Positions 9,813-62,900 of a stretch of DNA of 64,000 bases are shown here, piece after piece (position 1 is the stretch's first letter; each line of letters begins with the position of its first letter). Below the pieces are notes generated by a model. It was not told where the DNA came from and searched no databases. It saw only the letters and a list, made by a program, of their open reading frames with translations. The translations under genes and the position numbers were made by a program. Location: assembly GCA_023247445.1 (NCBI GenBank), contig JAHFGL010000003.1:78128-142127 (forward strand), read 5' to 3'. This DNA comes from Candidatus Omnitrophota bacterium. GTDB taxonomy: Bacteria > Omnitrophota > Gorgyraeia > Zapsychrales > Zapsychraceae.

Positions 9813-11006
9813 ATGAATTACGAAAATTGGATTAGTTACCGATATTTGATCGCTGGCAAAGGACGGTTCCTTTCGTTTCTTAATTTTGTCTCGATTGCTG
9901 GCATTGCCATTGGCGTCACCGCACTTATTGTTGTCACAGGTGTTATGACGGGTTTTGGTAATAATCTGCGAGAAAAAATTATTGGCACAACGCCGCATTT
10001 GATGATCGAAAAAGAAACGGGTGTTCCAGATTATGAGAAAATTGTAAATCAGGTCAAATCGATCGATGGCGTTGCCGGCGTATCGACATATGTGCAAGGC
10101 AACATTTTCTTGGAAAATTCTGGGCAGGCGATGGGGCTTGTCATCCGTGGCATTGTTCCTCAGACAGAACGAGAAGTCACAAGAGTTGAACAATATTTAA
10201 CTAAGGGCAAGATCGATGATTTAGAAGGCGATCATATTATTGTTGGTAAAGAATTGGCACGGTATTTTGGTTATGAGGTTGGTGATAAGGTAACATTAAT
10301 TTCTCCCAGCGCTGGTTTATCAGGACAAAGTTGGCATTACCAGTTAACGATTTCAGGGATTTTCAGCACGGGCATGGCGGATTATGATATGAATTTAGTT
10401 TTGGTCAATTTTAAGAAAGCTCAAGAAATTTTTGGTTTGGCTCCCAATATGGCAACCGGCATTGGGGTCAAAGTAAATAATCCCTATCAAGCTAATGAGA
10501 TCAAAGAAAAATTTTACACCCTGTTAGGATACAGTTTTATCGTTAAGAGCTGGATTGATATTAATCGCAATTTGTTTGAGGCGCTCGCGCTAGAAAAATG
10601 GGGATTGTTTATTATCTTAACGCTCATGGTTTTGGTGGCGTCGTTTAATATTATCAGCACGCTGATTGTGACGGTCATGAGCAAAGTTCATGATATCGGG
10701 ATTTTGCAAGCGATCGGTGTTCCCAAGAGTTCTATCCGAAAGATTTTTACAAAGCAGGGAATTTTTATTGGCGGCTTAGGTATTTTTTGGGGACTCATCG
10801 GTGGATTTGGATTAAGTTATATTTTAAAAACATATATTCGTGTTCCCGCACAGATTTATTCCATTGATCATGTGCCAGTTGAGTTGCAACTCTCAGATAT
10901 TTTGATTACGATAACCGCCGCATTTTTAATTAGCTATGCGGCCAGCGTTTATCCAGCGGCGAAGGCAGCTAAACTTGAACCGGTAGAAGCGTTAAGATAC
11001 GAATAA
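9813..11006 (+). CDS. lolE: Lipoprotein-releasing system permease (LolC/E, FtsX-like).
   Basis: 397 aa with 4 TM helices, a large periplasmic loop and an FtsX-type C-terminal domain. It is followed by the lolD ATPase. Confidence 0.7.
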   Translation: MNYENWISYRYLIAGKGRFLSFLNFVSIAGIAIGVTALIVVTGVMTGFGNNLREKIIGTTPHLMIEKETGVPDYEKIVNQVKSIDGVAGVSTYVQGNIFLENSGQAMGLVIRGIVPQTEREVTRVEQYLTKGKIDDLEGDHIIVGKELARYFGYEVGDKVTLISPSAGLSGQSWHYQLTISGIFSTGMADYDMNLVLVNFKKAQEIFGLAPNMATGIGVKVNNPYQANEIKEKFYTLLGYSFIVKSWIDINRNLFEALALEKWGLFIILTLMVLVASFNIISTLIVTVMSKVHDIGILQAIGVPKSSIRKIFTKQGIFIGGLGIFWGLIGGFGLSYILKTYIRVPAQIYSIDHVPVELQLSDILITITAAFLISYAASVYPAAKAAKLEPVEALRYE

Positions 11007-11015
11007 GATTTTATC

Positions 11016-11095
11016 GTCATTCTGAGGAGCGAAATCGACGAAGAATCTCAAAATACTTAAGAGCTCTGAGATCCTTCGCATTCGCTCAGGATGAC
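11016..11095. repeat. Imperfect palindromic element (GTCATyCTGAG...CTCAGGATGAC family), intergenic copy.
   Basis: Left arm GTCATTCTGAGGAGCGAAATCGACGAAGAATCTC, an 18-nt loop, then right arm GAGATCCTTCGCATTCGCTCAGGATGAC. It is related to the 68-bp elements at 53038 and 54312 in the opposite orientation. Its terminal ATGAC supplies the lolD start codon. Confidence 0.8.
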
Positions 11096-11777
11096 AGCCT
11101 TTACTATGATCCTTGAAGCGACTAATATTCATAAATTTTATGTTCAGTCTGGCCAAACTTTAGAAATATTAAAGGGAATTGACTTAAAAGTTGGTGATGG
11201 AGAATTTGTGGCCATCGTTGGGCCATCGGGAGCTGGAAAGTCAACACTGTTACATATTTTGGGCGGATTGGATAAGCCCAGCGAAGGACAGGTTCTTTTT
11301 CAAGGGCAAGATGTTTATCGACTTAAAGATAAAGAACGGGCAAAGGTTCGTAACATTAGTATAGGATTTGTGTTTCAGTTTTATCATTTACTTGCAGAGT
11401 TTACCGCCCTGGAAAATGTTTTACTGCCCGCGCTTATTAAAGAAGATCGCAAGAATAGCAAACATTTTGAGGGTAAAGGAACGGCGCTGTTAGATCAAGT
11501 CGGATTAAAGAGTCGAGCGACGCATAAACCCAATCAATTGTCAGGTGGGGAGCAGCAACGAGTGGCTATCGCCAGAGCCTTAATTAATGATCCCAAAATT
11601 ATTTTTTGCGATGAGCCGACGGGTAATCTTGATTCCGCAACGGGTAAAGAGATCATTAGTTTATTGCAGCAACTGAATCAAAAAAATAAACAAGCCTTGG
11701 TAATTGTAACCCATGATGAGAATATTGCGAAGTTAGCACAGCGTAAAGTTTATATTAAAGATGGGAAGTTAGTCTAA
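11091..11777 (+). CDS. lolD: Lipoprotein-releasing system ATP-binding protein LolD.
   Basis: 228 aa ABC ATPase with Walker [10 protein letters not shown], signature LSGGEQQR and Walker B IIFCDEPT. Confidence 0.8.
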
Positions 11778-22702: not shown

Positions 22703-23149
22703 ATGAACTATATTATCTACATAGTAAAAAGTGTTCTCCTAGCAATTTTATGTGCAGTCTTTACATTCGTGGCCTTTGCCTGTCTTTGGTACGTGGCGTC
22801 AAACCCAAATTCCTTTTTTATATTTGGTATTGTTTTATTAGTCACCTTGGCGGCAATAATGTATACAATTGATTCCTTGCGCAGATCAGTCATAAAAGAT
22901 ACAGGGAGATCAAAGGCTTTTAATTATGCCTGCATCGGTATATTAATTGGAATTGTTATTGCCATTATTAAATGGAAATGGGACCTTTCTAAATACTTTC
23001 AGGCAAGGGGAACGCAAGAAACTTACGGTGCTGATATTGTTGAACTATTAATGTCGATTGTCTTTTTTTCTGTCTTAGGATTTATTGGCGGCTTATTTAT
23101 TGGATTAATACGAGTAAAAAGATATAAAAATATTCCGAAATTGCCATGA
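22703..23149 (+). CDS. Hypothetical membrane protein (4 TM).
   Basis: 148 aa, hydrophobic. It overlaps the start of the next gene by 4 bp, which suggests an operon. Confidence 0.4.
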   Translation: MNYIIYIVKSVLLAILCAVFTFVAFACLWYVASNPNSFFIFGIVLLVTLAAIMYTIDSLRRSVIKDTGRSKAFNYACIGILIGIVIAIIKWKWDLSKYFQARGTQETYGADIVELLMSIVFFSVLGFIGGLFIGLIRVKRYKNIPKLP

Positions 23150-25014
23150 AGTTAAAAGCGTGTTTAAAAAGGTTTCTTGCCAGCGATTGGGTTGTTGTTG
23201 CCGGTTTAACGTTTATTTTCTTTTTAACCCACGGGTATCGATTTGCCTGGGATGACCATCCCATGGAAATTCCCCTTCTTAAAAGCCTCATCGACCACGA
23301 GCTATTTACCCGTGATTATTTCGTTACCAGCACCAAACAATATCTCTTAACCTATTTTTTTATTATCTTGTCGAAATTAATAACCATTAAGCAGATTGAG
23401 TTGGTGTATTTCATTTTATTTTGGGTGTCGCGCTATTTTATGTTTTTCTGGATGTATAAATTGTGGTTACTCATCTCAAAAAATAAATTAACAAGTTTCT
23501 GCTGCGTCTTAAGTTTTGAAGTGTTGGTGCGGTATCAGCTATTTCTTTATCTTACGTTTTCGGAATCAGAATGGACCTTTGCCTTTATTTTTGCCGGTTT
23601 TTACTATTTCTTTAAAGAAAGGTATCTTCTGGCGTCGATCATTTTGGGTGTTGCGGCAAATTTTCATGCCTTATTTGCGGCTTTCCCGATGATGTATGTA
23701 CTGGCTTATTTGATGTTCAAGGTAAAAGACTTAGGATGGAAGCCATTGGTCAATTCATTGTTGGCCTTTTTGATTTGCGCATCGCCAGTTTTAATTTGGT
23801 TTGTGAAAAAGATTCTTTTTCCACCGGCACTTGCTCCCGAGTTGCAATCAATGGATTGGATACAGCTTTATAAGGAACACTGCGAGTATATGTTTCGTTA
23901 TGGCACCGCTGCTCTTAGCCAAACTTTTCCTAACTCAGGGGCTTTTATTAAGAACGAGGCTGTTCATTTCGATATTTTTGTTATTTCTTTATTGTTTTTT
24001 AATCTTTGTCATAACCCCACATTCCGTAAAGAAACAAAAACGATGACAATCTTTTTTGTTGGAATGACGTTAATGATTTTTGATGTGCTGTGTGCTTATT
24101 TTTTCCCCAACGAACTTAGTATGACGATACAGTTCCGTCGGCATGAACCGTATCTTATAATTTTCTTGATTGGCTATACGACACTAGCGCTACGAACGAT
24201 TTCTTTGAAAGAAACCGTTTGGACATCCGCATTTCTGGGGATTATGTATTATCATCTGGGCAACAAGGATTTATTAAGCGCATCGATGTTATTGGCGGCG
24301 ACGTGTTTATTATTTGTGACACGAAGTAAATCCTATAACAAGATTCCTCAACTAGTAATATCTATTTTGGGTGTTATTGGTGTTTTTGTTTCTTTAAAGC
24401 TTTATGTGTATCAATTGCACCTGATGGGGATCAATCCTTTTCGAGAGATGTTTTTTAAGATTGTTTTAACAGTTTTCGGTGTTTCTTCATTAAGCACGTT
24501 AATTTTTCGTAACCCGAAATATCATGGCCAAATAAAGGCGTTATTTATTATTGTTCCGTTAAGCATATTCGTCTTCGGCTATACGCAGCGACATATTCAA
24601 GAAGTAAAGAAACCTAAATCATCCATTGATATTGTGCGGGACGATTTTAAAGAAATGGCCCTATATGCCAAGGATCACACGCCGAAGAGTGCGCTATTTT
24701 TGATTCCCTATGATTTGTCTTATGACAATTTTAGAGTTTTCTCTGAGCGCAATGTTCTCTATAACGATCAAGACATCGCTATTTTTCCCTATGACAAGAA
24801 TTTTATTTTAGAACGAAAGAAGAAGTTATCTTATATCGGTGATTTTAAAATTAGAGCAGAGCGCCCCGTCAATGACGCGGTTAAGAATGCCATTTTGGTT
24901 TATCATGTCGACTATATTGTTTTCCCATCTTACAACATGCCGCCAAGTTCAGCGATATTAGAACGCATTCATACAACATCGCTTTTGGGGCTATATAAAG
25001 TCAATTATCTGTGA
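23146..25014 (+). CDS. Large polytopic membrane protein, possibly a GT-C-type glycosyl- or lipid-modifying enzyme.
   Basis: 622 aa with >10 predicted TM helices and a C-terminal soluble region. No diagnostic motif is recognisable. Confidence 0.4.
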   Translation: MKLKACLKRFLASDWVVVAGLTFIFFLTHGYRFAWDDHPMEIPLLKSLIDHELFTRDYFVTSTKQYLLTYFFIILSKLITIKQIELVYFILFWVSRYFMFFWMYKLWLLISKNKLTSFCCVLSFEVLVRYQLFLYLTFSESEWTFAFIFAGFYYFFKERYLLASIILGVAANFHALFAAFPMMYVLAYLMFKVKDLGWKPLVNSLLAFLICASPVLIWFVKKILFPPALAPELQSMDWIQLYKEHCEYMFRYGTAALSQTFPNSGAFIKNEAVHFDIFVISLLFFNLCHNPTFRKETKTMTIFFVGMTLMIFDVLCAYFFPNELSMTIQFRRHEPYLIIFLIGYTTLALRTISLKETVWTSAFLGIMYYHLGNKDLLSASMLLAATCLLFVTRSKSYNKIPQLVISILGVIGVFVSLKLYVYQLHLMGINPFREMFFKIVLTVFGVSSLSTLIFRNPKYHGQIKALFIIVPLSIFVFGYTQRHIQEVKKPKSSIDIVRDDFKEMALYAKDHTPKSALFLIPYDLSYDNFRVFSERNVLYNDQDIAIFPYDKNFILERKKKLSYIGDFKIRAERPVNDAVKNAILVYHVDYIVFPSYNMPPSSAILERIHTTSLLGLYKVNYL

Positions 25015-25069
25015 GCAAAATTCGTGGTGTTCACGATAGAACCATTGTATTATTGGATAAAAATAAATA
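24886..25069. repeat. 184-bp direct repeat, copy 1 (3' end of the 622-aa gene plus ~55 bp downstream).
   Basis: Near-identical to 28026-28209, with about 6 mismatches. Confidence 0.9.
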
Positions 25070-25188
25070 ACATCAAGGCGATATAATTTTCGATATGTGT
25101 TTTGGAATTATGTGGCCGTATTAGGAACGAGAGGATTAAGCCTTCCCACTATCAAACGTAAAGTTCATGAGATTCTTAAGAAGGAAAT

Positions 25189-26606: not shown

Positions 26607-28013
26607 TTGATGGCCGACCGCAATTATTTATTTTACGATTTTACCACAAGCATCTGTTCACAATGTTTACGCAAAGTAGAGGCCAAGGTTATTTTTCAAG
26701 ATGAGAAAGTTTATTTACTTAAAAATTGTTTGATTCATGGAAAAGAGAAAGTATTAATCGCGACTGACATTGAATATTATAAGATGACGCGTAATTATTT
26801 AAAGCCTCCAAGCATGCCGCTTAAGTTTAATACCACGACACAATTTGGTTGTCCTTATGATTGCGGTTTGTGCCCCGATCATGAGCAGCATTCTTGTTTA
26901 ACGGTCATTGAAATTACCGATCGATGCAATTTGACATGCCCAACCTGTTACGCTGAATCAAGCCCTACGCATGGACGGCATCGAACGGTCGAAGAGATTG
27001 AACAGATGTTTGATATTATTGTCGCTAATGAGGGCGAACCGGATGTTGTTCAGATTAGCGGGGGCGAACCGACACTGCATCCCGATTTTTTTAAGATTCT
27101 TGATATTGCCAAAACAAAACCATTCCGGCATTTGATGATTAACACTAATGGTATTCGTATCGCTAAGGATGAAACTTTTGTCCGGCAGTTAGCGTCTTAC
27201 ATGCCGGGATTTGAAGTCTACTTACAGTTTGATTCCTTTGAGAAAGAGACACTTCAAAAGCTAAGAGGTGAAGATTTAAGAGATGTTCGGGAGCGTGCTC
27301 TTAATAATTTGAATAAATATAATCTTTCAACCACTTTAGTTGTTACCTTGCAAAAAGGATTAAATGATCATGAGATCGGCAAGATTATTCAGTTTGCCTT
27401 AAAGCAAAAATGTGTTCGCGGAGTAACATTGCAACCCACCCAAACGGCTGGCCGACTTGACAATTTCAATCCCGCAACTGATCGTCTTACCTTAACGGAA
27501 GTCCGTCAGGCCATCATTGATCAGAGCAATTTATTTACACCTGATGATTTGCTGCCCGTTCCTTGCAACTCTGATTGCTTGGCAATGGGATATGCGTTAA
27601 AAATTGCTGGACAGGTTATGCCACTTACGCGATTTATTAATCCCAAAGACTTATTAAATGATTCTAAAAATACGATTGTTTATGAGAAAGATCCCGACAT
27701 TCATCGCAAAATTATTAAAGTGTTTGATACGGGAAGGAGTGAGAATGAAATTCCGAAAAATTTGCAGTCACTCTTGTGTTGCTTGCCAAAGATTGTGGCC
27801 CCAAACCTTAATTATGATAATGTCTTTCGCGTGATCATTATGCAATTTTTAGATGCGTACAATTTTGACGTCCGCGCGGTCAAGAAATCTTGTGTCCACA
27901 TTGTCCATAAAGACGGCCGGATTATTCCTTTTGATACGATGAACTTATTTTATCGCGATGATAAAGAAGAATATTTAAAGCGTTTAAAGAATGAAACAGT
28001 TTTAACCAAATGA
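26607..28013 (+). CDS. Radical SAM enzyme with an N-terminal Cys-rich Zn-ribbon-like segment and two CX3CX2C motifs.
   Basis: 468 aa with CPYDCGLC and CNLTCPTCY, a glycine-rich SAM-binding stretch QISGGEPTL, and further C-terminal Cys residues. The architecture recalls the MJ0619 / Tes-like radical SAM family, but that assignment is unverified. Confidence 0.6.
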   Translation: MMADRNYLFYDFTTSICSQCLRKVEAKVIFQDEKVYLLKNCLIHGKEKVLIATDIEYYKMTRNYLKPPSMPLKFNTTTQFGCPYDCGLCPDHEQHSCLTVIEITDRCNLTCPTCYAESSPTHGRHRTVEEIEQMFDIIVANEGEPDVVQISGGEPTLHPDFFKILDIAKTKPFRHLMINTNGIRIAKDETFVRQLASYMPGFEVYLQFDSFEKETLQKLRGEDLRDVRERALNNLNKYNLSTTLVVTLQKGLNDHEIGKIIQFALKQKCVRGVTLQPTQTAGRLDNFNPATDRLTLTEVRQAIIDQSNLFTPDDLLPVPCNSDCLAMGYALKIAGQVMPLTRFINPKDLLNDSKNTIVYEKDPDIHRKIIKVFDTGRSENEIPKNLQSLLCCLPKIVAPNLNYDNVFRVIIMQFLDAYNFDVRAVKKSCVHIVHKDGRIIPFDTMNLFYRDDKEEYLKRLKNETVLTK

Positions 28014-28025: not shown

Positions 28026-28209
28026 AATGCCATTTTGGTTTATCATGTCGACTATATTGTTTTCCCATCTTACAACATGCCGCCAAGTTCAGCGATATTA
28101 GAACGCATTCATACAACATCGCTTTTGGGGCTATATAAAGTCAATTATCTGTAAGAAAAATCCGTGGCGTTCACGACAGAACCATTGTATTATTGGATAA
28201 AAATAAATA
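28026..28209. repeat. 184-bp direct repeat, copy 2 (noncoding relic of the 622-aa gene 3' end).
   Basis: Matches 24886-25069. It lies immediately after the radical SAM stop codon. Confidence 0.9.
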
Positions 28210-28337
28210 GCAATAATGGCATGGGTTGCGGTCTTTGGGAGTTGCTGGTAGGTAGGGATGATAATGGAGAGAATAGCAAAAGCTTTAGTAGCACAGGGAC
28301 TTATAAAATAGTATACTTTTTGCAAGGAGGATATTTT

Positions 28338-39152: not shown

Positions 39153-39237
39153 AAGATAGAAAATAGAAGATGGAGGATGGATGAAGATGGATGGTAGAAT
39201 CGATGAGCTATCTTCTATCATCCATCTTCTATCTTCG
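39152..39237. repeat. GAAGATGGA-rich long imperfect hairpin element (copy 1).
   Basis: GAAGATAGAA...AGAAGATGGATGG // CCATCTTCT...TTCTATCTTC, immediately after the metG stop. Confidence 0.7.
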
Positions 39238-41273: not shown

Positions 41274-41276
41274 ATG

Positions 41277-41362
41277 AAGATAGAAGGGAGAAGATGGAAA
41301 ATGGATGAAGATGGAAAGTAGAATAAGATCATTCCACATTCTATTGTCCATCCTCTATTTTC
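41277..41362. repeat. GAAGATGGA-rich long imperfect hairpin element (copy 2).
   Basis: GAAGATAGAAGGGAGAAGATGGAAAATGGATGAAGATGGAAAGTAGAAT // ATTCTATTGTCCATCCTCTATTTTCCC, immediately after the thiL stop. Confidence 0.7.
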
Positions 41363-49233: not shown

Positions 49234-49797
49234 TTGATGACGACAAACACAATTAAAGAAGATCGCGCAAGGCTCCTTGCGATTATCCATAAAGAAGCTT
49301 ACTTCCGCGAAAAGATTATTCTTTCTTCAGGCAAAGAAAGTGATTATTACATCGATGCCCGACGGGTTACTTTGGGTGCAGAAGGAGTATATTTGTGTGC
49401 CAGGCTAATTCTTGATTTAATTAAGAATGATAAAGTTGATGCTATTGGTGGTCCAACTCTTGGCGCTGATCCTATGGTGGGAGCTTTAGGGGTTCTAAGT
49501 TTTCAGGCGGGTAAACCAATCAATACTTTTATTATTCGAAAAGCGCCAAAGCCGCATGGTAAACAGCAGCAAGTAGAAGGCCCGTTATTAAGCGAAGGCA
49601 GTCGTGTGGTTTTAATCGATGATGTGGCTACAACCGGCAAGGCATTTTTAGAATCGATTGATGTGTTAACAAAAATGAATATTAAAACCCCGAAAGCCAT
49701 TTGCATTGTTGATCGTCATGAAGGAGCGAAGGAAGCGTTAAAGGCCAAGGGATGTGAATTGGTCTCCCTTTTTGATATTGCTGAAATCCATAAATGA
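49234..49797 (+). CDS. pyrE: Orotate phosphoribosyltransferase (short type).
   Basis: 187 aa with PRPP-binding motif VVLIDDVATTGKA. Confidence 0.75.
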   Translation: MMTTNTIKEDRARLLAIIHKEAYFREKIILSSGKESDYYIDARRVTLGAEGVYLCARLILDLIKNDKVDAIGGPTLGADPMVGALGVLSFQAGKPINTFIIRKAPKPHGKQQQVEGPLLSEGSRVVLIDDVATTGKAFLESIDVLTKMNIKTPKAICIVDRHEGAKEALKAKGCELVSLFDIAEIHK

Positions 49798-51134
49798 AAC
49801 GAATCATCCTCGCCTCAGGTTCTGTTCAACGAAAAAAACTACTGCAACTCTTAGGCGTTAAGTTTACTGTCCAGCCTAGTGGTGTTCCTGAAGTAAAGAA
49901 AATTAAAACTACCTGTACGGATCTTGTTAAACATAATGCTTTGATCAAGGCGCAAGATGTTGCCGCCAAGTCCAAGAATGCGATTGTTATTGGGGCGGAC
50001 ACGGTTGTTTACATCGGCAATAAACAAATCATCGGCAAGCCTAAAGATCTTAAAGACGCTAAACGGATTTTAAAGATTCTTTTTGCCAAGCCGCACTGGG
50101 TTTATACCGGCGTTGTTGTGATTGACACGGCCACCGGCAAGAAAGTGATCGATTATGAAAAGACCAAAGTTTTTATGACACCATTGTCTGACGAGGAAAT
50201 TGATCGGTATCATCAGAATATTTCACCATTGGATAAGGCGGGAGGGTTTGACATCGAAGGCTGGGGAAGTTTGTTCATCAATCGGATCGAAGGCTGTTAT
50301 TCGAATGTGATTGGGTTACCGATGTCGAAATTGTGTCACATGCTTAAAAAAGTTGGTGTGTCGGTTTTAGGACTTCTACTTATGATCAATATTATGGGCT
50401 GTGCTACAGAATATAATTTGGCGACTCAAAGGGAAGAGACATTAATTTACGGTGATGAAAAAGAAATTCATTTAGGTGAAGCGATGGCCCGTAGCATTGA
50501 GCTGCATTATAAGGACAAAATTTTTACCGAGGTTGACGCTAATGAACGTGTAGAAAGAATTTTAAAACGTATCACTGAAGTTTGTGATCGAACGGACATC
50601 GTTTATTTTATTAAAATTATTGATGAAGATGAAATGAACGCCGTTAGTCTTCCTGGGGGATATATCTATGTTTTTAAAAAATTAGTTGAAAAGGTTGATA
50701 ACGACGATCAATTAGCTGGCGTCATTGCCCACGAGGTTGGGCATATTACCGCTAAACATGCGATTAAAAAATTGCAGGAGGCTTATGGGGCGATGCTTTT
50801 TCAATTGGCTGTTACGCAAACCCCAGCCCGTAACGTCAGCGGTGGACTAAATTTTGCCTTAACATCTCTTTTTATGTCACATTCGCAAGAAGATGAATTT
50901 CAAGCCGATGAGCTTGGTGTCAAATATATGAAGGCCGCTGGGTATAATCCGTTAGAGATGACTAACATGTTACGAAAATTACAGCAAGAACAGGACAAAT
51001 CTTCCCTTCGCCAATATAGTTATTGGCGTACCCATCCGCATATTCCTGAGAGAGTTGCCGCGGTTAACACAATTGTTTCCGGTAAAATGGAGTTTAAAGA
51101 TTACATTAAAATGATTGGGCGTGATGAAAAATAA
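49794..51134 (+). CDS. maf: Maf-like nucleotide pyrophosphatase fused in-frame to a lipoprotein-type M48 (HExxH) peptidase.
   Basis: 446-aa continuous ORF. Residues ~1-185 are Maf (ILASGSVQRKKLL...GLPM). Then comes an internal lipoprotein-like signal, MLKKVGVSVLGLLLMINIMGC. The C-terminal part is an M48/BepA-like domain with HEVGH. Confidence 0.65.
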   Translation: MKRIILASGSVQRKKLLQLLGVKFTVQPSGVPEVKKIKTTCTDLVKHNALIKAQDVAAKSKNAIVIGADTVVYIGNKQIIGKPKDLKDAKRILKILFAKPHWVYTGVVVIDTATGKKVIDYEKTKVFMTPLSDEEIDRYHQNISPLDKAGGFDIEGWGSLFINRIEGCYSNVIGLPMSKLCHMLKKVGVSVLGLLLMINIMGCATEYNLATQREETLIYGDEKEIHLGEAMARSIELHYKDKIFTEVDANERVERILKRITEVCDRTDIVYFIKIIDEDEMNAVSLPGGYIYVFKKLVEKVDNDDQLAGVIAHEVGHITAKHAIKKLQEAYGAMLFQLAVTQTPARNVSGGLNFALTSLFMSHSQEDEFQADELGVKYMKAAGYNPLEMTNMLRKLQQEQDKSSLRQYSYWRTHPHIPERVAAVNTIVSGKMEFKDYIKMIGRDEK

Positions 51135-51573: not shown

Positions 51574-53361
51574 TTAATTTGTTTTTTTAGGTCGGTAAAT
51601 GTGTGTACTTTGACCGAAGAAACTTTCGGCGGTTTCCATCAGAGTTTCACTTAAGGTGGGGTGAGGATGGATGGTCATTTTAAGGTCAGTGACAACCGCG
51701 CCCATTTCGATAGCCAGAACACCTTCAGCAATAAGTTCTCCAGCTCCAGGACCAACGATTGAGACACCTAAAATGCGTTCTGTTGTGGGATCAATAATTA
51801 ATTTTGTAAGCCCATCGGTGCGATCAAGGGTTAATGATCGTCCGGAGGCCGCCCATGGAAATTTGACAACCTCAACAATTTTGCCTTGAGCTTTGGCTTC
51901 AGTTTCTGTTAATCCGCACCAGGCAATTTCTGGGTCAGTAAAAACAACCGCAGGAATTGCTTTTGGTTCAAAAGCCGCTTTATGACCGGCAATGCATTCC
52001 ACGGCGGTGATTCCTTCGTGGGAGGCTTTATGGGCCAGCATCGGTTGACCAGTTACGTCACCGATGGCATAGATTGACGCATCCGCGGTTTGGCGCTGAA
52101 GATTTACTTCAATAAATCCGCGGTCACTAACTTTAACTTTTGTTTTCTCCAGACCGAGTCCACTAGTATTTGGTTTTCTGCCGATTGCGACTAAAACTTT
52201 TTCATATTCTTTTGATGTTGTCTGCCCAGTTTTATCTTCAAATGTTACTTTAATTCCCGAAGAGGTTTCTTCCATCTTAAGGACTTTTGTTTCCACCATA
52301 ATTGTGCTAAGGATTGTCCTTAAACGTTTCTCAAGGATACTTGCGACATCGCGATCAGCGCCCGTCATCAGTTGTGGAAGCATCTCAACAACATCTAATT
52401 GTGTTCCTAGTTCTGCATAGACCGTTCCTAGTTCTAGTCCAATATACCCACCGCCGACGAGTAACATCGTTTTTGGAATGCTTTTCATTTCTAAGGCTGA
52501 GGTTGAATCCCATATCCGAAGAGATTTTGGGGCGATAGGAAGTTGAATGGGACTCGACCCAGTTGCAATAATAGCGCGATCAAAAGTTAATGATTCAGAA
52601 CTTCCGTCGTTCTTCGCAACATTTAAAGTGTTTGAGTTAACAAATGTAGCGCGGCCTTGGATATATTTTACTTTTCGTTGTTTACTTAATTGTCCTAAGC
52701 CACCGGTTAATTTTTTAACAACATCATCTTTCCATCCACGCAATTTATTGATATCGATTTTTGGTTTATCAAATTCAATGCCGAAATTTTTGGCTTCTTT
52801 GGATTCAGATAAAACTTTGGCAGCGTGAAGTAGGGCTTTAGAAGGAATGCATCCGCGATATAAACAAACGCCGCCTGGATTAACATCTAAATCAATGAGA
52901 GTTACGTTTAGTCCTAAGTCGGCTGCTAAGAATGCCGCGGTGTAGCCACCGGGTCCACCGCCGATGACGACGAGATTAATATCTTTTGTTGATGATAAGG
53001 GAAGAGGAGTTAGGTGTTGGGGTTCGGTTTTACTTTTGTCATCCTGAGCGGCAGCGAAGGATCTCTTGGGAGATCCTTCAGTCGCTTTCGCTCCTTCAGG
53101 ATGACGGGTAATGCCTGATGTTGATGATGTCTCTTCAACTTTAAGCACAACCTGACCGATCGTAACTTCTTGGCCAGCTTTGATTAGAATTTCTTTAACG
53201 ACACCATCGCAGGTCGAAGGGACCGGCAAGGAAGCCTTGTCTGTTTCAAGCTCGAGAAGATCTTGACCTTTTTTAATCGTGTCACCGACTTTAACAAAGA
53301 TGTTAACGACAGTTCCAGATTTTATATTTTCCCCGACCTGAGGAATTTTGAATTCAATCAT
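51574..53361 (-). CDS. lpdA: Dihydrolipoyl dehydrogenase (E3) with an N-terminal lipoyl domain.
   Basis: 595 aa: lipoyl domain (ELETDKA), linker, FAD-binding GGGPGGY, and redox-active disulfide CLYRGCIPSK. Confidence 0.9.
   Translation of the reverse strand: MIEFKIPQVGENIKSGTVVNIFVKVGDTIKKGQDLLELETDKASLPVPSTCDGVVKEILIKAGQEVTIGQVVLKVEETSSTSGITRHPEGAKATEGSPKRSFAAAQDDKSKTEPQHLTPLPLSSTKDINLVVIGGGPGGYTAAFLAADLGLNVTLIDLDVNPGGVCLYRGCIPSKALLHAAKVLSESKEAKNFGIEFDKPKIDINKLRGWKDDVVKKLTGGLGQLSKQRKVKYIQGRATFVNSNTLNVAKNDGSSESLTFDRAIIATGSSPIQLPIAPKSLRIWDSTSALEMKSIPKTMLLVGGGYIGLELGTVYAELGTQLDVVEMLPQLMTGADRDVASILEKRLRTILSTIMVETKVLKMEETSSGIKVTFEDKTGQTTSKEYEKVLVAIGRKPNTSGLGLEKTKVKVSDRGFIEVNLQRQTADASIYAIGDVTGQPMLAHKASHEGITAVECIAGHKAAFEPKAIPAVVFTDPEIAWCGLTETEAKAQGKIVEVVKFPWAASGRSLTLDRTDGLTKLIIDPTTERILGVSIVGPGAGELIAEGVLAIEMGAVVTDLKMTIHPHPTLSETLMETAESFFGQSTHIYRPKKTN
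53038..53105. repeat. 68-bp palindromic element (GTCATCCTGAG...CTTCAGGATGAC) lying in-frame inside the lpd lipoyl-domain linker.
   Basis: GTCATCCTGAGCGGCAGCGAAGGATCTCTTGGGAGATCCTTCAGTCGCTTTCGCTCCTTCAGGATGAC. It is translated on the minus strand as ...RHPEGAKATEGSPKRSFAAAQDDK... Confidence 0.85.
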
Positions 53362-53363
53362 TT

Positions 53364-54641
53364 TTAAAGTCCTGTTAAATCCGGCTTTTCAATGGCTTCA
53401 GCGATCCAGCGTAGGAATCGCGCACCATCGGCCCCATCAATCAAACGATGATCATAGGAAAGAGAGAGAGGAAGTTTAAATCGCGGGACAAAAGCACCCT
53501 TTTCATAAACCGGTTCCCATGCTCCACGAGAAATTCCTAAAATTGAAACCTCTGGCCAGTTGACAATCGGAGTAAAATAAGTTCCGCCAATGCCACCTAA
53601 ATTTGTTAAGGTAATTGATCCGCCTTGTAATTCATCTAATGTTGTCTTTTTGGTACGCGCGCGTTCCGCCATTTCATTTAGTTCATCAGCCAGTTGAATA
53701 ATACTTTTCTTGTCGATATCTTTTATGACTGGAACCAGAAGTCCGCGATCCGTATCAACAGCGACACCAATGTTAAAATATTTTTTCTCAATGATTTCGT
53801 TCGTGCTCATATCAATCGAGGCATTAAATTGTGGAAATGTTTTTAAAGCCGAGGCCATTACTTTTAAAAGAAATGGGGTGATCGTTAATTTGCGTTTATC
53901 TGTCGATTTTTCTTTGCGTATTTTCTCAAGTTCGGTAATGTCCGCTTTATCGAATTGTGTGACGTGGGGAATTGTGGTCCAGCAATATGTCATATGTTCC
54001 GCTGTTTTCTTGCGGACATTGTTCATCGGTTTTCGTTCAACCGATCCCCATTTTGAGAAATCAGGCAAAGATCGTGTAGGCACACTTACGCCGCCACTAG
54101 CGCGTGAAGTGTTGAGCGCTTTTGAATAAGCTTTAACATCATCAAGAGAAATGCGTCCACCAGGACCAGTTCCCAAGACTTGGCCAATTTCGATACCAAT
54201 CTCTCGTGCGAAACGACGAACAGAGGGAGCCGCTGCAACGTCACGTTGTGGTGACATTGATCGCATGGGCATAACTGGTTGCGCCATTTGGACTGGTTTG
54301 GCAACAGTTTTGTCATCCTGAGCGGCAGCGAAGGATCTCTTAGGAGATCCTTCAGTCGCTTTCGCTCCTTCAGGATGACGAGCCGGGGTTGTTGTCGTGG
54401 CCGATGTTGTCTCATCAATTTTCATCACCAGCTGACCAATTTTTACTTCATCGTTTTCTTTGATCAAAATTTCTTTGATTGTCCCATCGACAGGAGAAGG
54501 GACTTCAAGCGCCGCTTTATCTGTTTCAAGCTCAAGGAGAGTTTGATTTTTCTTGATGACATCGCCAACTTTGACGGCAATTTTTATGACGGTGCCGGAT
54601 TTTATATTTTCTCCGACTTCGGGGAGTTTGAATTCGAACAT
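53364..54641 (-). CDS. aceF: Dihydrolipoamide acyltransferase (E2) of a 2-oxo acid (pyruvate) dehydrogenase complex.
   Basis: 425 aa: lipoyl domain, linker, E3-binding domain (PSVRRFAREIGIEI) and catalytic domain (DHRLIDG). Confidence 0.9.
   Translation of the reverse strand: MFEFKLPEVGENIKSGTVIKIAVKVGDVIKKNQTLLELETDKAALEVPSPVDGTIKEILIKENDEVKIGQLVMKIDETTSATTTTPARHPEGAKATEGSPKRSFAAAQDDKTVAKPVQMAQPVMPMRSMSPQRDVAAAPSVRRFAREIGIEIGQVLGTGPGGRISLDDVKAYSKALNTSRASGGVSVPTRSLPDFSKWGSVERKPMNNVRKKTAEHMTYCWTTIPHVTQFDKADITELEKIRKEKSTDKRKLTITPFLLKVMASALKTFPQFNASIDMSTNEIIEKKYFNIGVAVDTDRGLLVPVIKDIDKKSIIQLADELNEMAERARTKKTTLDELQGGSITLTNLGGIGGTYFTPIVNWPEVSILGISRGAWEPVYEKGAFVPRFKLPLSLSYDHRLIDGADGARFLRWIAEAIEKPDLTGL
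54312..54379. repeat. 68-bp palindromic element (same family) lying in-frame inside the E2 lipoyl-domain linker.
   Basis: Differs from the 53038 copy by one base (TTAG vs TTGG loop). It encodes the same RHPEGAKATEGSPKRSFAAAQDDK peptide. Confidence 0.85.
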
Positions 54642-54660
54642 GGTTAACCTTTACAGTAGT

Positions 54661-54738
54661 GTCATTCCCGCAAAAGCGGGAATCTAGGACGAAAGTTTAT
54701 TTTTTATGGATGCCCGATTAAAGCATTCGGGCATGACA
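54661..54738. repeat. Double-hairpin palindromic element between aceE and aceF with GTCAT...ATGAC termini.
   Basis: GTCATTCCCGCAAAAGCGGGAATC ... ATGCCCGATTAAAGCATTCGGGCATGAC. Two stems of 8 bp each. The termini resemble the GTCATCCTGAG family. Confidence 0.7.
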
Positions 54739-54751
54739 GAAATCAAATACT

Positions 54752-57436
54752 TTAAGAAATCATCGGATTAAGTTTATTCGGATTAATCGACAATTCTTTG
54801 GCGGCTTTATCAAGAACATCTGCCTTAATTTTGTTTTCGCGGTAAAGTTTGCTTAACGTGGCAAAGACAATATGTCGCGCGTCGATTTCAAAGAAATCGC
54901 GTAGCGCCTTGCGGCTTTCGCTACGACCAAAACCATCGGTTCCCAGAGAAACCATCGGCCCTGGTACCCATTTGCTAATTCCATCCGACATCGCCTTCAT
55001 ATTGTCAGAGACAAAGACAAAAACGTCTTTCTCATTTTTTAAAATTTGAGTCACGTAAGGAACTTTAGGCGTTTCTTTTGGATTTAAGAAATTCCAACGC
55101 TCGATGTGAAGTGCTTCCCGGCGAAGTTCGTTGTAGCTGGTAACACTCCAGATATCGGCGGCGATATTATATTTTTCTTCTAGAATCTTCTGCGCCTCTA
55201 GCGCTTGATTCATAATTGACCCACTGCCAAAAATTTGCGCTTGAAGTGTAGCACCCTTTTTGTCTGAGGTCTTAAATTTGTACATTCCTTTTAAGATGCC
55301 TTCTTTAACACCTTCAGGCATCGCAGGCATCGGATAATTTTCGTTGCCGACACTTAAGTAGTAGAAAACATTTTCTTGTTTTTCATACATACGATAAATG
55401 CCGTCACGAATAATGATGGCTAGTTCATAAGCAAAGGCTGGATCATAGGTGACGATGTTGGGAACGCTTGAAAGTAAAAGGTGGCTGTGGCCATCTTGAT
55501 GTTGTAATCCTTCACCGTTAAGTGTTGTTCGTCCGGCGGTAGCGCCAACTAAAAATCCTCGGCAACGTGAATCCGCCGCGGCCCAGATTAAATCACCGAT
55601 ACGTTGTGGTCCAAACATCGAATAATAAATATAAAATGGAATTGTGTTGATCCCTTGTGTTGAATAAGCCGTTCCGGCGGCAATAAAAGAGGAGATGGCG
55701 CCGGCTTCATTAATACCTTCTTCTAGGATTTGACCATCTTTCGCTTCTTTGTAATAAAGAAGTGAGTCCGCATCAACTGGTTCATAAAGCTGCCCGACAT
55801 GGGAATAGATTCCGCATTGACGGAAAAGCGATTCCATCCCAAAGGTTCGCGCTTCATCAGGAATAATAGGAACAATTAATTGACCAATTGTTTTGTCTTT
55901 TAAAAGTTTGGTTAAGATACGAACATAAACCATCGTCGTTGAAACTTCACGGCCTTCGGTTCCTTTATAAAATTCTTCAAATAATTCTTCAGAAGGCGTT
56001 TGAAGAGGAACACTGTTGGCCTGACGCGAGGGAACGTAGCCGCCGAGTGCTTTGCGTCGTTCATGAAGATAAATCATTTCTTCAGAATCCGCTGCTGGTT
56101 TATAAAATGGTGTGTTCGCGGTATCTTTATCTGAAATAGGAATGTTAAATCGTGTACGGAATTGTTTTAATTCATCTTCGTTGAGCTTCTTTTGTTGGTG
56201 GCTAATGTTTTTTCCTTCGCCACTTTCGCCAAGTCCATAGCCTTTGATTGTTTTGGCTAAAATAACCGTTGGTGCGCCTTTAAAATCCATGGCCGCTTTA
56301 TACGCCGCATAAACTTTTTGAGGATCATGGCCACCGCGGTTTAAACATTCCAACTGTTCGTCGCTTAAATGTTTTACCATCTCTAACAGGCGTGGATCTT
56401 TGCCAAAAAAATGGTCACGGATATAAGCGCCAGACTCAACTGAATATTTTTGATATTCGCCATCGATAACTTCACCCATACGTTTGGCAAGAAGGCCTTC
56501 GGTATCTTTTTCGAGCAAAGCATCCCAGCCGCTGCCCCAGATAACTTTAATGACATTCCACTGCGCGCCGCGAAAGAGGGCTTCTAATTCTTGAATAATT
56601 TTGGCGTTGCCGCGAACCGGTCCATCAAGTCGCTGGAGGTTGCAGTTAATAACAAAGATTAAATTGTCGAGTTTTTCGCGAGAGGCGACAGTAATAGCGC
56701 CTAAAGATTCTGGTTCATCAGATTCACCATCGCCCATGTAGCACCAAATTTTGGCATCATCACGAGGTTTAAGGCCACGGTCTTCCAAATAACGCATAAA
56801 ACGGGCTTGATAAATACTACAAATTGGACCCAGTCCCATTGAAACCGTTGGAAATTGCCAGAAATTTGGCATAAGCCAAGGATGTGGATAAGAGGAAAGG
56901 CCGCCACCAGGCTGCAATTCTCGACGGAAATTTTCTAGATTGGTTTCAGTTAATCGGCCTTCTAAGAAAGCGCGGGAATAAACACCAGGAGAGGCATGAC
57001 CTTGAAAATAAATGAAATCACCGCAAAAATTATCCGTTCGCGCACGATAAAAATGATTAAAGCCAACTTCCCAAAGCGTTGCCGCTGAGGCGTAGGTTGA
57101 AATATGTCCACCGATTCCGCTTTCCGCATGATTGCCGCGAACGACCATCGCCATCGCATTCCAGCGAATAATACTTTTAATGCGGCGTTCAATCTCGCGG
57201 TTTCCTGGGTAAGCAGGTTCTTTGCTTTTGGCAATTGAGTTTATATAGGGAGTATTAACAGTAAAGGGAAGGGTAACACCGGCTTCTTGAGCGCGGATTT
57301 GCAGCTGAGCGAGGATTTTTTGCGCTTGTTCGAGCGAGCCGTGTTTTAAAACGTAATCGAGGGAACTGAGCCACTCTTGTATTTCAATATCTTCGACTTC
57401 ATTGGATTGATTTTTTACGACACCATCGGAACTCAT
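54752..57436 (-). CDS. aceE: Pyruvate dehydrogenase E1 component (homodimeric AceE type).
   Basis: 894 aa. The length and ThDP-binding regions are typical of the large single-chain E1. It is upstream of E2 and E3. Confidence 0.9.
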   Translation of the reverse strand: MSSDGVVKNQSNEVEDIEIQEWLSSLDYVLKHGSLEQAQKILAQLQIRAQEAGVTLPFTVNTPYINSIAKSKEPAYPGNREIERRIKSIIRWNAMAMVVRGNHAESGIGGHISTYASAATLWEVGFNHFYRARTDNFCGDFIYFQGHASPGVYSRAFLEGRLTETNLENFRRELQPGGGLSSYPHPWLMPNFWQFPTVSMGLGPICSIYQARFMRYLEDRGLKPRDDAKIWCYMGDGESDEPESLGAITVASREKLDNLIFVINCNLQRLDGPVRGNAKIIQELEALFRGAQWNVIKVIWGSGWDALLEKDTEGLLAKRMGEVIDGEYQKYSVESGAYIRDHFFGKDPRLLEMVKHLSDEQLECLNRGGHDPQKVYAAYKAAMDFKGAPTVILAKTIKGYGLGESGEGKNISHQQKKLNEDELKQFRTRFNIPISDKDTANTPFYKPAADSEEMIYLHERRKALGGYVPSRQANSVPLQTPSEELFEEFYKGTEGREVSTTMVYVRILTKLLKDKTIGQLIVPIIPDEARTFGMESLFRQCGIYSHVGQLYEPVDADSLLYYKEAKDGQILEEGINEAGAISSFIAAGTAYSTQGINTIPFYIYYSMFGPQRIGDLIWAAADSRCRGFLVGATAGRTTLNGEGLQHQDGHSHLLLSSVPNIVTYDPAFAYELAIIIRDGIYRMYEKQENVFYYLSVGNENYPMPAMPEGVKEGILKGMYKFKTSDKKGATLQAQIFGSGSIMNQALEAQKILEEKYNIAADIWSVTSYNELRREALHIERWNFLNPKETPKVPYVTQILKNEKDVFVFVSDNMKAMSDGISKWVPGPMVSLGTDGFGRSESRKALRDFFEIDARHIVFATLSKLYRENKIKADVLDKAAKELSINPNKLNPMIS

Positions 57437-58455: not shown

Positions 58456-58500
58456 TGCGGAAGGAGAGATTTGAACTCTCATACCTTGCGGCACAGGCTT
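58456..58500 (-). tRNA. 3' half of a split tRNA-Leu(CAG)-like gene (anticodon-loop AA through the acceptor 3' strand plus discriminator A).
   Basis: Minus strand reads AAGCCTG-TGCCGCAAGGTAT-GAGAGTTCAAATCTCTC-CTTCCGC-A. The T-arm and acceptor are nearly identical to the intact tRNA at 58581-58663. No CCA is encoded. Confidence 0.55.
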
Positions 58501-58580
58501 CTGCACTGACTTCTCTAATAAAGATATTTATTGTAGTCAGTACTGCCCCAACTTTTTCTTTATGCTTGGGGAAACTTTAA

Positions 58581-58663
58581 TGCGGAAGGAGAGACTCGAA
58601 CTCTCAAGGCTTGCGCCATACGCTTCTGAGACGTACGCGTATACCAAATTCCGCCACTCCCGC
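58581..58663 (-). tRNA. tRNA-Leu(CAG), intact, type II with a long variable arm.
   Basis: Minus strand reads GCGGGAG-TG-GCGGAATTTGGTATACGC-G-TACGT-CTCAGAA-GCGTA-TGGCGCAAGCCTT-GAGAGTTCGAGTCTCTC-CTTCCGC-A. The acceptor pairs 7/7 (one G-U). No CCA is encoded. Confidence 0.8.
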
Positions 58664-60237: not shown

Positions 60238-60665
60238 GGGGGTGATCGGTCTCGACTTGAGTTAGCGATGTATAGGTGGCATGCCGAGGAAGCCTAGTAG
60301 GCCTCGTTAATAATCTGGGCAAAAACTAAACGCAGAAAAAACAGCGTTATCGACCTTCGATGCTGAACTTGCATTTGCTACGTCAGTAGCTCCTGTCAAG
60401 AACACAGTGTCTGTTGGTCAATTAGTCTAAGCTCTCGTAGCTTAGCCCTCTTACCAGTCTCGTCTGCGGATTGGAGTTAGGGGACCCTAGCAGGCTCGGG
60501 TGTAAATTCCGTTTCCTGGTTTACATCGACACTTTAAGGAATCTAGTCTTAATTGATCCTGTCTAGCGGAGGGATTAAGATGACGCTTGAAAAGATAGAC
60601 TACGCATGTAGAGGCTTATATAACGAAACCCAAGGACCCGGGTTCGATTCCCGGCACCTCCACCA
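60238..60665 (+). ncRNA. ssrA: tmRNA (SsrA).
   Basis: The 5' end GGGGGUGAUCGGUCUCGAC pairs with the 3' end CACCUCC-ACCA. The terminal tRNA-like domain is GGACCCGGGTTCGATTCCCGGCACCTCCACCA. It lies immediately downstream of smpB. The internal frame from GCA (60332) runs to TAA at 60428 (AEKTALSTFDAELAFA...). Confidence 0.85.
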
Positions 60666-62588: not shown

Positions 62589-62900
62589 TGTAATTCTCCT
62601 CACATTGCCTTCCCAAAAACATATGCTATACTTTCAGCAGAAACAGAAGCGTTAGCCGATCTTTAAAAATTTATCTTAGTAAACTATTCGAAAGAGTAGG
62701 ACACAAAGCCGTGAGCCTAAAGTCCTTTTGGACTATGGTTGTCTGGTTGCCATTGCTGATCTAATTAGATCGTAGATACAGTGATGATTGCCTCAAGGAA
62801 GATCTAAAGTCGTAAAGAATTGAGGCTGCGTTTAGTCCAACGCAAAAGGCTTCGTCTTTGTCCCTATCCTTCGTGCCTTAATCATTTAGGAGGGATAAAG

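Follow-up and report, generated by a model that had tools for sequence, protein, structure and literature searches.

In Rickettsia, palindromic repeats known as Rickettsia palindromic elements (RPEs) lie in frame within essential genes, at sites that tolerate them, and become part of the translated protein. Ogata and colleagues reportedly described RPE-1 to RPE-8 in 2000 and 2002. RPE-1, which is restricted to Rickettsia, is ~100-150 nt long and encodes 30-50 aa.

A second group of palindromic repeats, the CGTC-tagged REPs, was defined by Di Nocera, De Gregorio and Rocco (2013, BMC Genomics 14:522; PMC3733652). A CGTC REP has an unpaired 4-nt tag, CGTC (variants TGTC and CCTC), at one end of a hairpin whose 8-9-bp stem opens with complementary A and T at its first two positions, a loop of 4-5 nt, and an unpaired 3-nt tail with the consensus CCA. 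Most units are paired in inverted orientation, and such a dimer can fold into one large hairpin; they are found in several phyla, with Micavibrio among the hosts, and have no known dedicated transposase. Intragenic dimers encode 20-30 aa, and RPE-4 and RPE-6 of Rickettsia are assigned to the superfamily. Entries in Additional file 3 of PMC3733652 concern 2-oxoacid dehydrogenase complexes: in Opitutus terrae, GTAG-17 dimers lie in Oter_4191 (OGDH E2, aa 190-204) and the adjacent Oter_4192 (dihydrolipoamide acetyltransferase, aa 127-142), and in Sphingopyxis alaskensis, CGTC-1 units lie in PDH E1 (Sala_0526) and E2 (Sala_1235, aa 180-187).

The window analysed here, a 64-kb stretch of an Omnitrophota contig, contains a pyruvate dehydrogenase (pdh) operon on the minus strand. 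Its first gene, aceE (pyruvate dehydrogenase E1, 54752..57436), is followed by aceF (dihydrolipoamide acetyltransferase, E2, 425 aa, 53364..54641) and lpd (dihydrolipoyl dehydrogenase, E3, with an N-terminal lipoyl domain, 595 aa, 51574..53361). Both aceF and lpd are intact minus-strand ORFs, and each holds one 68-nt imperfect palindrome, at 54312..54379 in aceF and 53038..53105 in lpd (minus strand), with the sequence GTCATCCTGAGCGGCAGCGAAGGATCTC-TT(G/A)G-GAGATCCTTCAGTCGCTTTCGCTCCTTCAGGATGAC. The copies are identical at 67/68 nt, and the single mismatch falls in the loop and is synonymous (Pro codon CCC/CCT). Consistent with an earlier sequence-only reading of this DNA, which had reported the same palindrome in both genes, in one frame and after the lipoyl domain, the element is read in the same frame and orientation as the 24-aa peptide RHPEGAKATEGSPKRSFAAAQDDK in E2 (aa 88-111) and in E3 (aa 86-109). 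In the aceF copy this peptide is coded by the element together with one flanking base on the 5′ side and 3-4 on the 3′ side. In coding orientation, the block of identity between the copies consists of C, the 68 nt and AAAA, and its edges are sharp. Allowing up to 3 mismatches, the 28-nt arm matched three times in the 64-kb window, compared with 0.00 expected from 100 shuffles, and the GC content of the element is 53% versus 40% for the window. In a separate ENA assembly the 425-aa E2 recurs and precedes a gene of 595 aa, a length equal to that of the E3 in the window. That adjacent genes should carry near-identical copies alike in frame, orientation and relative position would be a striking coincidence for independent events, which counts against separate insertions.

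Pfam borders placed the E2 peptide between Biotin_lipoyl (3-75) and E3_binding (135-170), and the E3 peptide between Biotin_lipoyl (3-74) and Pyr_redox_2 (129-450), confirming that the palindrome is translated in the inter-domain linker of each protein, as had been proposed from the sequence. The element supplies 24 of the 57 linker residues of E2 and 24 of the 54 of E3; the corresponding ortholog linkers measure 49-62 aa for E2 and have a median of 54 aa for E3. These lengths suggest that the element did not lengthen the linkers and stands in for ~20 residues of native linker, whose loss would explain why the totals sit at the ortholog norm. An AlphaFold2 model of E2 (23-sequence alignment) gave a pLDDT of ~30 over residues 1-132, lipoyl domain included, and says nothing on the insert.

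The arrangement resembles that of O. terrae, where one repeat likewise occupies two neighbouring complex genes at linker-typical positions. The O. terrae and S. alaskensis cases differ in that they involve other repeat families and shorter inserts (8-16 aa); PMC3733652 lists no E3 case and tabulates these insertions without linker-length or ortholog analysis.

When the orthologs were aligned, as the sequence-only reading had suggested, the 24-aa peptide was absent from 119/119 other E2 matches and 119/119 other E3 matches (238 homologues), and the element was missing from both the E2 gene and the E3 gene of a syntenic relative (L001). Among the orthologs examined, direct evidence of an empty site or of an insertion polymorphism was found for neither aceF nor lpd, and the exact insertion borders are unreadable from them because the linkers are too diverged. 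No target-site duplication was found, as the flanks of the three window copies (the third is described below) share no duplicated bases.

These comparisons bear on the alternative raised in the sequence-only reading, in which the lipoyl domain, linker and palindrome were duplicated as one module, anciently and from E2 onto E3. That reading called the N-termini of the two proteins very similar; similar they are, and the protein identity of the E3 lipoyl domain to that of E2 speaks for a duplication, but the strength of the wording did not hold, since identity over the 75 N-terminal residues is only 70.7%. At the DNA level the lipoyl domains of aceF and lpd are 70.5% identical, against 98.5% for the element, and module duplication was rejected because of this low identity (~70%). 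Moreover, the lipoyl domain of the E3 in the window is nearer to that of L001 E3 (76% in DNA, 81% in protein) than to that of its own E2, and L001 carries the element in neither gene. The lipoyl-E3 fusion itself is old and widespread in Omnitrophota, with dozens of orthologs of 581-627 aa that all lack the peptide. An origin of both copies by module duplication is therefore hardly credible.

Alternatively, the element could have inserted once and then reached the other gene by template switching or ectopic gene conversion between their paralogous lipoyl-linker regions, 1.27 kb apart. Such copying would account for the shared frame, orientation, position (9-12 residues past the lipoyl domain) and 67/68 identical nucleotides, and it is favoured by the match of 11/17 bases just downstream of the element in the coding direction. 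In addition, the E2 lipoyl domain of L001 is about as like E3 domains as its own ortholog, which hints at some concerted evolution in the clade. However, identity ends abruptly at the lipoyl-proximal edge, and the longest exact aceF/lpd matches outside the element are 14 nt upstream and 9 nt downstream, too short for ordinary homologous recombination. Together with the divergence of the lipoyl DNA overall (only 70.5% identical), these observations make copying between the genes unlikely.

Two REP-type hairpins of ~27-36 nt, in inverted orientation and with their tags directed outward, make up the element. Because the tails of the two arms point towards each other, two folds are open to the dimer, a pair of hairpins or a single long one; predicted folding energies are -39 to -42 kcal/mol (z = -6 to -8). 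Each arm comprises a tag, (C/T)GTC, a stem, AT(C/T)CUGAGC / GCGAAG(G/A)AU with two G·A pairs, and a tail, CTC. The stem has nine positions, beginning with A-T and T-A (the starting A and T were fixed by the search pattern); positions 6-7 are the tandem G·A and the remainder form seven pairs. Short arms have GNA/GNRA-like loops of 3-4 nt (GNA, GGCA), and in long arms a nested hairpin of 12-30 nt replaces the loop.

Arms were gathered with patterns that fixed most stem positions, leaving three pairs and the middle segment as free tests of structure. At the free positions 6/22, the 338 unique arms listed had C-G in 237 cases, T-A in 84, G-C in 9, A-T in 1 and T·G in 3, with 4 unpaired. The variable middle of the same arms was self-complementary (2.67, compared with 1.39 ± 0.07 in a half-swap control). 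For 93 distinct 28-nt arms, 98% of cells were paired and all three unconstrained pairs covaried, and 0/500 shuffles matched the observed percentage paired, the cells changed on both sides or the covariation score. This covariation supports the arm hairpin. The tags of the 338 arms listed were TGTC (209), CGTC (92), GGTC (16), GCTC (8), AGTC (7) and CCTC (6), where the pattern limited the last three bases to GTC or CTC and left free the first base and the choice of G or C at the second; in the window copies one arm bears TGTC and its partner CGTC. The 3-nt tail was CTC in 212/338 arms listed and CCA in 6/338.

Judged by its anatomy, the element seems to fit the CGTC-tagged REP superfamily. With the REPs described in PMC3733652 it shares the tag, the A-then-T start of the stem, a 3-nt tail, inverted dimers that fold singly or jointly, a distribution over several phyla including Micavibrio, coding dimers of 20-30 aa, and the lack of a known dedicated transposase. 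It differs from them in a stem that is not fully Watson-Crick (seven pairs plus two tandem G·A), in a CTC rather than a CCA tail, and in one arm whose loop, 4-5 nt in those REPs, is replaced by a long nested hairpin. When the peptides listed for CGTC-1, -3 and -4 were back-translated, they gave different stems, ATTCCCGC, ATCGCCGGG and ATTCCGTGG. Judged against these three families, it appears to be one that PMC3733652 does not describe.

The window also has a textbook CGTC REP unit at 54660-54686. It forms one arm, on the plus strand, of a classical CGTC-type REP heterodimer (54660..54738, no strand assigned) that fills the aceE-aceF spacer, and reads TGTC-ATTCCCGC-AAAA-GCGGGAAT-CTA. The other arm, on the minus strand (54738-54707), reads TGTC-ATGCCCGAA-TGCTTTA-ATCGGGCAT-CCA and so has the classical tail. 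This anatomy fits the CGTC-1-like REPs of PMC3733652.

A third copy of the element type was found on the plus strand at 11016..11095, in a 100-nt intergenic stretch that separates a lolE-like permease gene (9813..11006) from a lolD-like ATPase gene. The sequence-only reading had placed a further intergenic copy of the 68-mer at 11016; a copy is indeed present, but it is a diverged dimer of 80 nt, with a T/A variant on one arm and a 16-nt spacer. Its polarity relative to transcription is that of the pdh copies, and all three window copies of the element type are dimers. Counting the heterodimer, the pdh operon holds 3/4 of the REP dimers seen in 64 kb (aceE-aceF spacer, aceF and lpd).

Distribution was assessed in samples of genome-contig and metagenome-contig scans, and the counts cover the matches listed. 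Among these, relatives of the element occurred in Acidobacteriota, Omnitrophota, Micavibrio, Burkholderiales, Planctomycetia, a cyanobacterium, Firmicutes, CPR bacteria and viral contigs, with two-armed copies in many phyla and in viral contigs. The nearest outside copy among the matches listed, from a Micavibrio MAG, is 64/69 identical (93%). One or both outer arms were present in ~90/116 genome matches listed, and both in 68, using a pattern that required the inner palindrome; 41/125 metagenome single-arm matches listed had a partner arm no more than 70 nt upstream. Pfam-supported in-frame copies were identified in a molybdopterin oxidoreductase, an anthranilate-synthase-I-like protein and a class-III (BioA-like) aminotransferase, as well as in IF-2, WecB, a GT1 glycosyltransferase and an MmeI-like methylase, and a decayed copy lies in the E3 linker of another Omnitrophota (P0154). 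The occurrence of the family in intergenic DNA and in unrelated Pfam-supported genes of other phyla agrees with the earlier claim that the repeat exists independently of the pdh genes.

This distribution also bears on whether the hairpins are kept for an action on the pdh transcript or DNA, with the peptide incidental. Possible roles would be adjustment of E1:E2:E3 ratios through mRNA processing or stability, ribosome pausing after the lipoyl domain emerges, or binding of a host protein. In E. coli, REPs are able to stabilise the mRNA upstream of them and to influence translation close to stop codons, and the concentration of three of the four REP dimers of the 64 kb in one operon, the high predicted stability of the hairpins, and the conservation of the arm sequence across phyla with covariation would all suit a function of this kind. 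So would the common polarity of the three same-type copies, but this agreement is not significant. Moreover, orthologous operons manage without the elements and the same repeat occurs in genes and spacers that are unrelated and share no theme, making a retained hairpin function improbable.

A phmmer search for RAYT/TIRYT (11 queries, 14,969 ORFs, 2.5 Mb of loci) gave 3 matches, none adjoining an arm and none in the window, which is weak evidence of absence; an association with RAYTs was thus unsupported, as none lay beside any copy examined. Rfam gave no match at the elements, either at the gathering threshold (whole window) or at E<=10 (52950-54750), and a literature search with core sequence strings returned chance primer matches only. 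A 104-aa concatenate of four open frames, compared with a protein database, gave 54 word-sharing candidates, none with E<=10, and was uninformative. A CRISPR-like array was rejected, as the 87-nt period in L066 reflects tandem dimers and not repeat-spacer units. Likewise, a hammerhead-like core (CUGA...GAA) was dismissed because neither the NGA bases nor the A15.1-U16.1 pair is found in the motif, and a kink-turn because the 3-nt bulge is missing.

Compared with other mobile palindromes, the element resembles the REPIN-RAYT system (Bertels and Rainey 2011; Nunvar et al. 2010) in its inverted pair of REP hairpins, short spacer and lack of a target-site duplication. REPINs, however, are GTAG-tagged, whereas the present tag is CGTC/TGTC, and have a cognate single-copy RAYT flanked by REPs; no RAYT was found in the window or next to any copy examined. 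Like MITEs (Coxiella QMITEs, PMC5896051; Neisseria Correia elements), these are small non-autonomous repeats that occasionally lie in ORFs and add peptide segments; MITEs have IS-derived terminal inverted repeats and target-site duplications, neither of which was seen here, nor was an IS-like partner. As in RPEs, a palindromic repeat lies in frame within protein genes and is absent from orthologs. Judged from the RPE-4/-6 peptides (VIPWLDHGI, VIPAKAGI, SFPRKRES), which imply different stems, there is no sequence similarity to RPEs beyond the tag, and compared with RPE-1 the element is shorter and not bound to Rickettsia. Its host, an Omnitrophota bacterium, is free-living or episymbiotic, whereas Rickettsia is obligately intracellular.

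Taken together, ortholog absence, copies elsewhere and the family link bear out the main proposal of the sequence-only reading, that a palindromic repeat with an existence of its own was inserted in frame where the proteins tolerate it, in the manner of RPEs. Probably this dimer of inverted REP-type hairpins is a small, non-coding, non-autonomous spreading repeat that entered aceF and lpd recently and was tolerated in their linkers. It would spread within and between genomes, presumably by transposition, and a copy would have entered aceF and, most likely as a separate event, lpd, after this Omnitrophota lineage split from its sequenced relatives. Several features would explain why these copies survive: the inserted block, at 72 nt, keeps the reading frame; the frame used contains no stop codon and gives a linker-like peptide rich in Ala, Gly, Pro, Lys and Glu; and the site lies behind the lipoyl domain in a disordered swinging-arm linker, which is expected to be nearly free in sequence but constrained in length. 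Selection would then have filtered insertions, leaving a neutral peptide, ~20 fewer native linker residues and a total length at the norm.

More tentatively, two broader ideas may hold jointly, a combination we consider possible although doubtful. The G·A-bearing CGTC-type hairpin may represent an undescribed REP family that moves between phyla, a reading prompted by the 93% identity to Micavibrio copies and by the copies in other phyla and viral contigs; if so, its mobilising enzyme would not be a known one. Translated copies, for their part, may serve as recurrent raw material for linkers, replacing native linker and then decaying, as the window E2 and E3, the decayed P0154 copy and the O. 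terrae and S. alaskensis cases would suggest.

The pdh copies add a new case to a phenomenon for which Rickettsia and other bacteria had already provided examples. They involve a very widespread and strongly conserved REP-type hairpin that was not found in Rfam or the searchable literature. For annotation, the peptides HPE...QDD and VIL...RMT can be used to flag the repeat in real proteins as well as in spurious ORFs. More broadly, swinging-arm linkers allow essential multidomain enzymes to take up selfish palindromic DNA. That the insert substitutes for native linker instead of being added to it points to selection on linker length over sequence, and to a possible route of linker turnover.

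The pyruvate dehydrogenase operon of this Omnitrophota MAG is encoded on the minus strand, with aceE (54752..57436), aceF (53364..54641; E2, 425 aa) and lpd (51574..53361; E3, 595 aa). Pfam assigned Biotin_lipoyl (3-75), E3_binding (135-170) and 2-oxoacid_dh (200-422) domains to E2, and Biotin_lipoyl (3-74) and Pyr_redox_2 (129-450) domains to E3. The element, GTCATCCTGAGCGGCAGCGAAGGATCTC-TT(G/A)G-GAGATCCTTCAGTCGCTTTCGCTCCTTCAGGATGAC, occupies 54312-54379 in aceF and 53038-53105 in lpd. The sequence-only reading had reported the same palindrome in frame within both genes, and this observation is real: the copies are 67/68 identical and both are translated as RHPEGAKATEGSPKRSFAAAQDDK (aa 88-111 in E2, aa 86-109 in E3). 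In coding orientation the identity block comprises a C, the 68 nt and AAAA, with a single synonymous mismatch, and its lipoyl-side edge is abrupt. Allowing up to three mismatches, the 28-nt arm matched three times in the window versus 0.00 expected. A folding energy of -39 to -42 kcal/mol was computed for the element as RNA (z = -6 to -8), and its GC content is 53% versus 40% for the window. Taken jointly, the two copies have three or four of the six frames open, and translation uses the most linker-like of these.

The sequence-only reading had proposed, as an alternative to insertion, that a lipoyl and linker module including the palindrome was duplicated between E2 and E3. Alignment of orthologs, the check it had suggested, found the peptide missing from all 119 other E2 matches (up to 79% identity) and all 119 other E3 matches (up to 72% identity). 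The syntenic locus L001 of a relative (aceE-aceF-ORF-lpd-DUF192-M48-Maf) contained no match to the repeat, and its E2 and E3 genes encode ordinary Ala/Pro/Lys-rich linkers. The lipoyl domain DNA of E2 and E3 (first 225 nt) is 70.5% identical, compared with 67/68 for the element between the same two genes. The E3 lipoyl domain is closer to that of L001 E3 (76% DNA, 81% protein) than to its own E2, indicating that the lipoyl-E3 fusion is older than the split of the two lineages. Together these comparisons rule out an inherited module. A single insertion followed by copying into the other gene is a minor alternative, as the longest exact aceF-lpd matches outside the element (14 nt upstream, 9 nt downstream) make a poor substrate for gene conversion. 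Taken together, the absence of the peptide from homologues, the lack of the repeat at L001, the lipoyl divergence, the short flanking matches and the GC contrast lead us to conclude that the element appears to have entered by recent insertions, most likely two. In the window, 49794-51134 is a single 446-aa ORF with Maf-like and M48 peptidase domains, which are two separate genes in L001 (192 and 261 aa).

The E2 linker is 57 aa long, against 49-62 aa (median 54.5) in orthologs (n=22); the 54-aa E3 linker equals the ortholog median (54; range 43-87; n=47). Subtracting the 24 element-coded residues leaves 33 (E2) and 30 (E3) native residues, each fewer than in every ortholog. The insert thus appears to substitute for native linker instead of lengthening it, native sequence having been either deleted in compensation or displaced when the element inserted. 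The longest E3 linker among homologues (87 aa) belongs to P0154 from another Omnitrophota (627 aa; L358 409-545) and holds a decayed repeat copy, CGTCATCCTG ... CGAAGGATCT-ATTTC-AGATTCTCAGAATGACAAAA, encoding RHPVPTSSGES...APATEGSISDSQNDK; this suggests that the E3 linker was invaded repeatedly and independently, with copies then decaying into ordinary linker.

A classical CGTC-superfamily heterodimer (54660-54738) fills nearly the whole 110-nt aceE-aceF spacer, so that the operon carries three REP dimers. Its arms are TGTC-ATTCCCGC-AAAA-GCGGGAAT-CTA and, on the opposite strand, TGTC-ATGCCCGAA-TGCTTTA-ATCGGGCAT-CCA. At the same place L001 (2975-3040) has a different palindrome of ~60 nt. The intergenic copy reported at 11016, outside the pdh genes, does exist between lolE-like and lolD-like genes, but it is a diverged form (11016-11095, 16-nt spacer) and not the same 68-mer. 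Its end (...CAGGATGACAGCC; 11091-11110) gives an ATG in the lolD frame that the ORF listing took as start; the true start looks to be the ATG at 11107. In locus L203 the element end similarly adjoins a signal-peptide start. Three RAYT-like genes were found in 2.5 Mb of loci, none adjoining an arm and none in the window.

Rfam gave no match at the elements in the window; it identified a tRNA (58581-58663), a tmRNA gene (60238-60665; 169 bits) and a c-di-GMP-I riboswitch (62668-62754; 71.5 bits). A similar 48-nt repeat copy ~125 nt upstream of the tRNA (58456-58503) suggests a putative second tRNA gene. The window also contains a 187-nt direct repeat (24886-25072 and 28026-28212; 97% identical, 3.1 kb apart), of which the first copy takes in the final ~43 codons of ORF 23146..25014 and continues beyond it, and the second follows ORF 26607..28013, and a purine-rich repeat (GAAGATAGAA..GATGGA..) at 39138-39200, where it is partly tandem, and 41276-41324, 2.1 kb apart.

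Each arm is a self-standing hairpin: a (C/T)GTC tag leads into the pairs A-U, U-A, Y-R, C-G and U-A, next come G·A and A·G, followed by G-C and C-G; a GNA/GNNA loop or longer nested hairpin closes the stem, and the tail is CTC. The free pair 6/22 was C-G in 237 of 338 unique arms, T-A in 84, G-C in 9, A-T in 1, T·G in 3 and mismatched in 4, and the variable middle was self-complementary (2.67 versus 1.39 ± 0.07 in a half-swap control). Among 93 distinct 28-nt arms, 98% of cells were paired and all three unconstrained pairs covaried, the remaining four being fixed by the search pattern; 0/500 shuffles matched the observed percentage paired, both-side changed cells or covariation score.

A scan of GTDB genomes for the short-spacer form of the inner palindrome gave at least 116 matches; among the 116 listed, ~90 had at least one outer arm, 68 of them both. 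Hosts among the matches listed included Acidobacteriota (one MAG with >20 contigs matched), Thermoanaerobaculia, several Omnitrophota, Micavibrio, Burkholderiales, a cyanobacterium, Firmicutes UBA1065, Parcubacteria, Kerfeldbacteria and Planctomycetia, the last with a terminal variant CTCAT...ATGAG. The matches listed also placed an arm-2 subfamily in metagenomes and, in viral contigs, arms that were solitary, in inverted pairs with variable spacers or, once, in a tandem array. The closest outside relative of the 68-mer among them was a Micavibrio MAG copy (64/69 identical). Dimers in Micavibrio MAGs (L153 7244, L161, L188, L210, L236) match the Omnitrophota copy at 88-93% identity and share its unusual arm CTTCAGTCGC...CCTTCAGGATGAC, a striking likeness across phyla; both lineages are thought to live on other bacteria. 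The IMG/VR contig L066 (8593-8969) carries five head-to-tail dimers with an 87-nt period reaching the locus end, with conserved arms and variable inner spacers of 12-13 nt. In IMG/VR contigs L028 (~5000), L051 (4232), L058 (3833) and L067 (27), a solitary arm directly precedes the Shine-Dalgarno sequence and ATG start codon with which a conserved, phage-like gene begins (MTKSKIEEGLPKTK...), a recurrent placement that looks regulatory, not random.

Stop-free stretches across elements were accepted as host proteins after a Pfam check: a molybdopterin oxidoreductase (L140, Acidobacteria), an anthranilate-synthase-I-like protein whose two domains flank the element (L221, Omnitrophota), a class-III aminotransferase (L231, Pseudomonadota) and, from metagenomes, IF-2 with GHPEGAEATEGS within the G domain (L296), WecB (L263 group, same site in six contigs), a GT1 glycosyltransferase (L339) and an MmeI-like methylase (L267). 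Every listed protein except the methylase uses the window's HPE.../...QDD frame. In the WecB (UDP-GlcNAc 2-epimerase) gene a single arm encodes DPSVA(S/A)LLQDD in L263, L321, L326, L328, L348 and L355; its constant position in related contigs with diverged flanks indicates an old, vertically kept in-frame insertion, beside which L328 has gained a second arm.

The sequence-only reading had likened the palindrome to Rickettsia palindromic elements inserted in frame at tolerant positions, and rightly so: it is an in-frame REP dimer in tolerant linkers. PMC3733652 (Di Nocera et al. 2013) describes CGTC-tagged REPs with a CGTC, TGTC or CCTC tag, an 8-9 bp stem starting with A and T, a 4-5 nt loop and a 3-nt tail. 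They occur mostly as inverted dimers in several phyla including Micavibrio, have no dedicated transposase by that account, and as intragenic dimers code for 20-30 aa; R. conorii RPE-6 and Neisseria dRS3 are equated there with CGTC-1, and R. conorii RPE-4 with CGTC-4. The present arms share the tag and dimer layout of the REPs so described and resemble them in A-T start and tail position, yet differ in their G·A pairs, CTC tail (CCA in theirs), nested hairpin and, by back-translation of the peptides given for CGTC-1, -3 and -4, stems. On these grounds we file the element as a putative member of the CGTC-tagged superfamily, in a separate family probably absent from that paper and set apart from CGTC-1, -3 and -4 by the back-translated peptides. 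Additional file 3 of PMC3733652 lists precedents for insertion at this very site: O. terrae has GTAG-17 dimers in Oter_4191 (OGDH E2) and the adjacent Oter_4192 (dihydrolipoamide acetyltransferase), and S. alaskensis has CGTC-1 units in its PDH E1 and E2. The phenomenon itself is therefore already known; what is new here is the host phylum and, probably, the repeat family.
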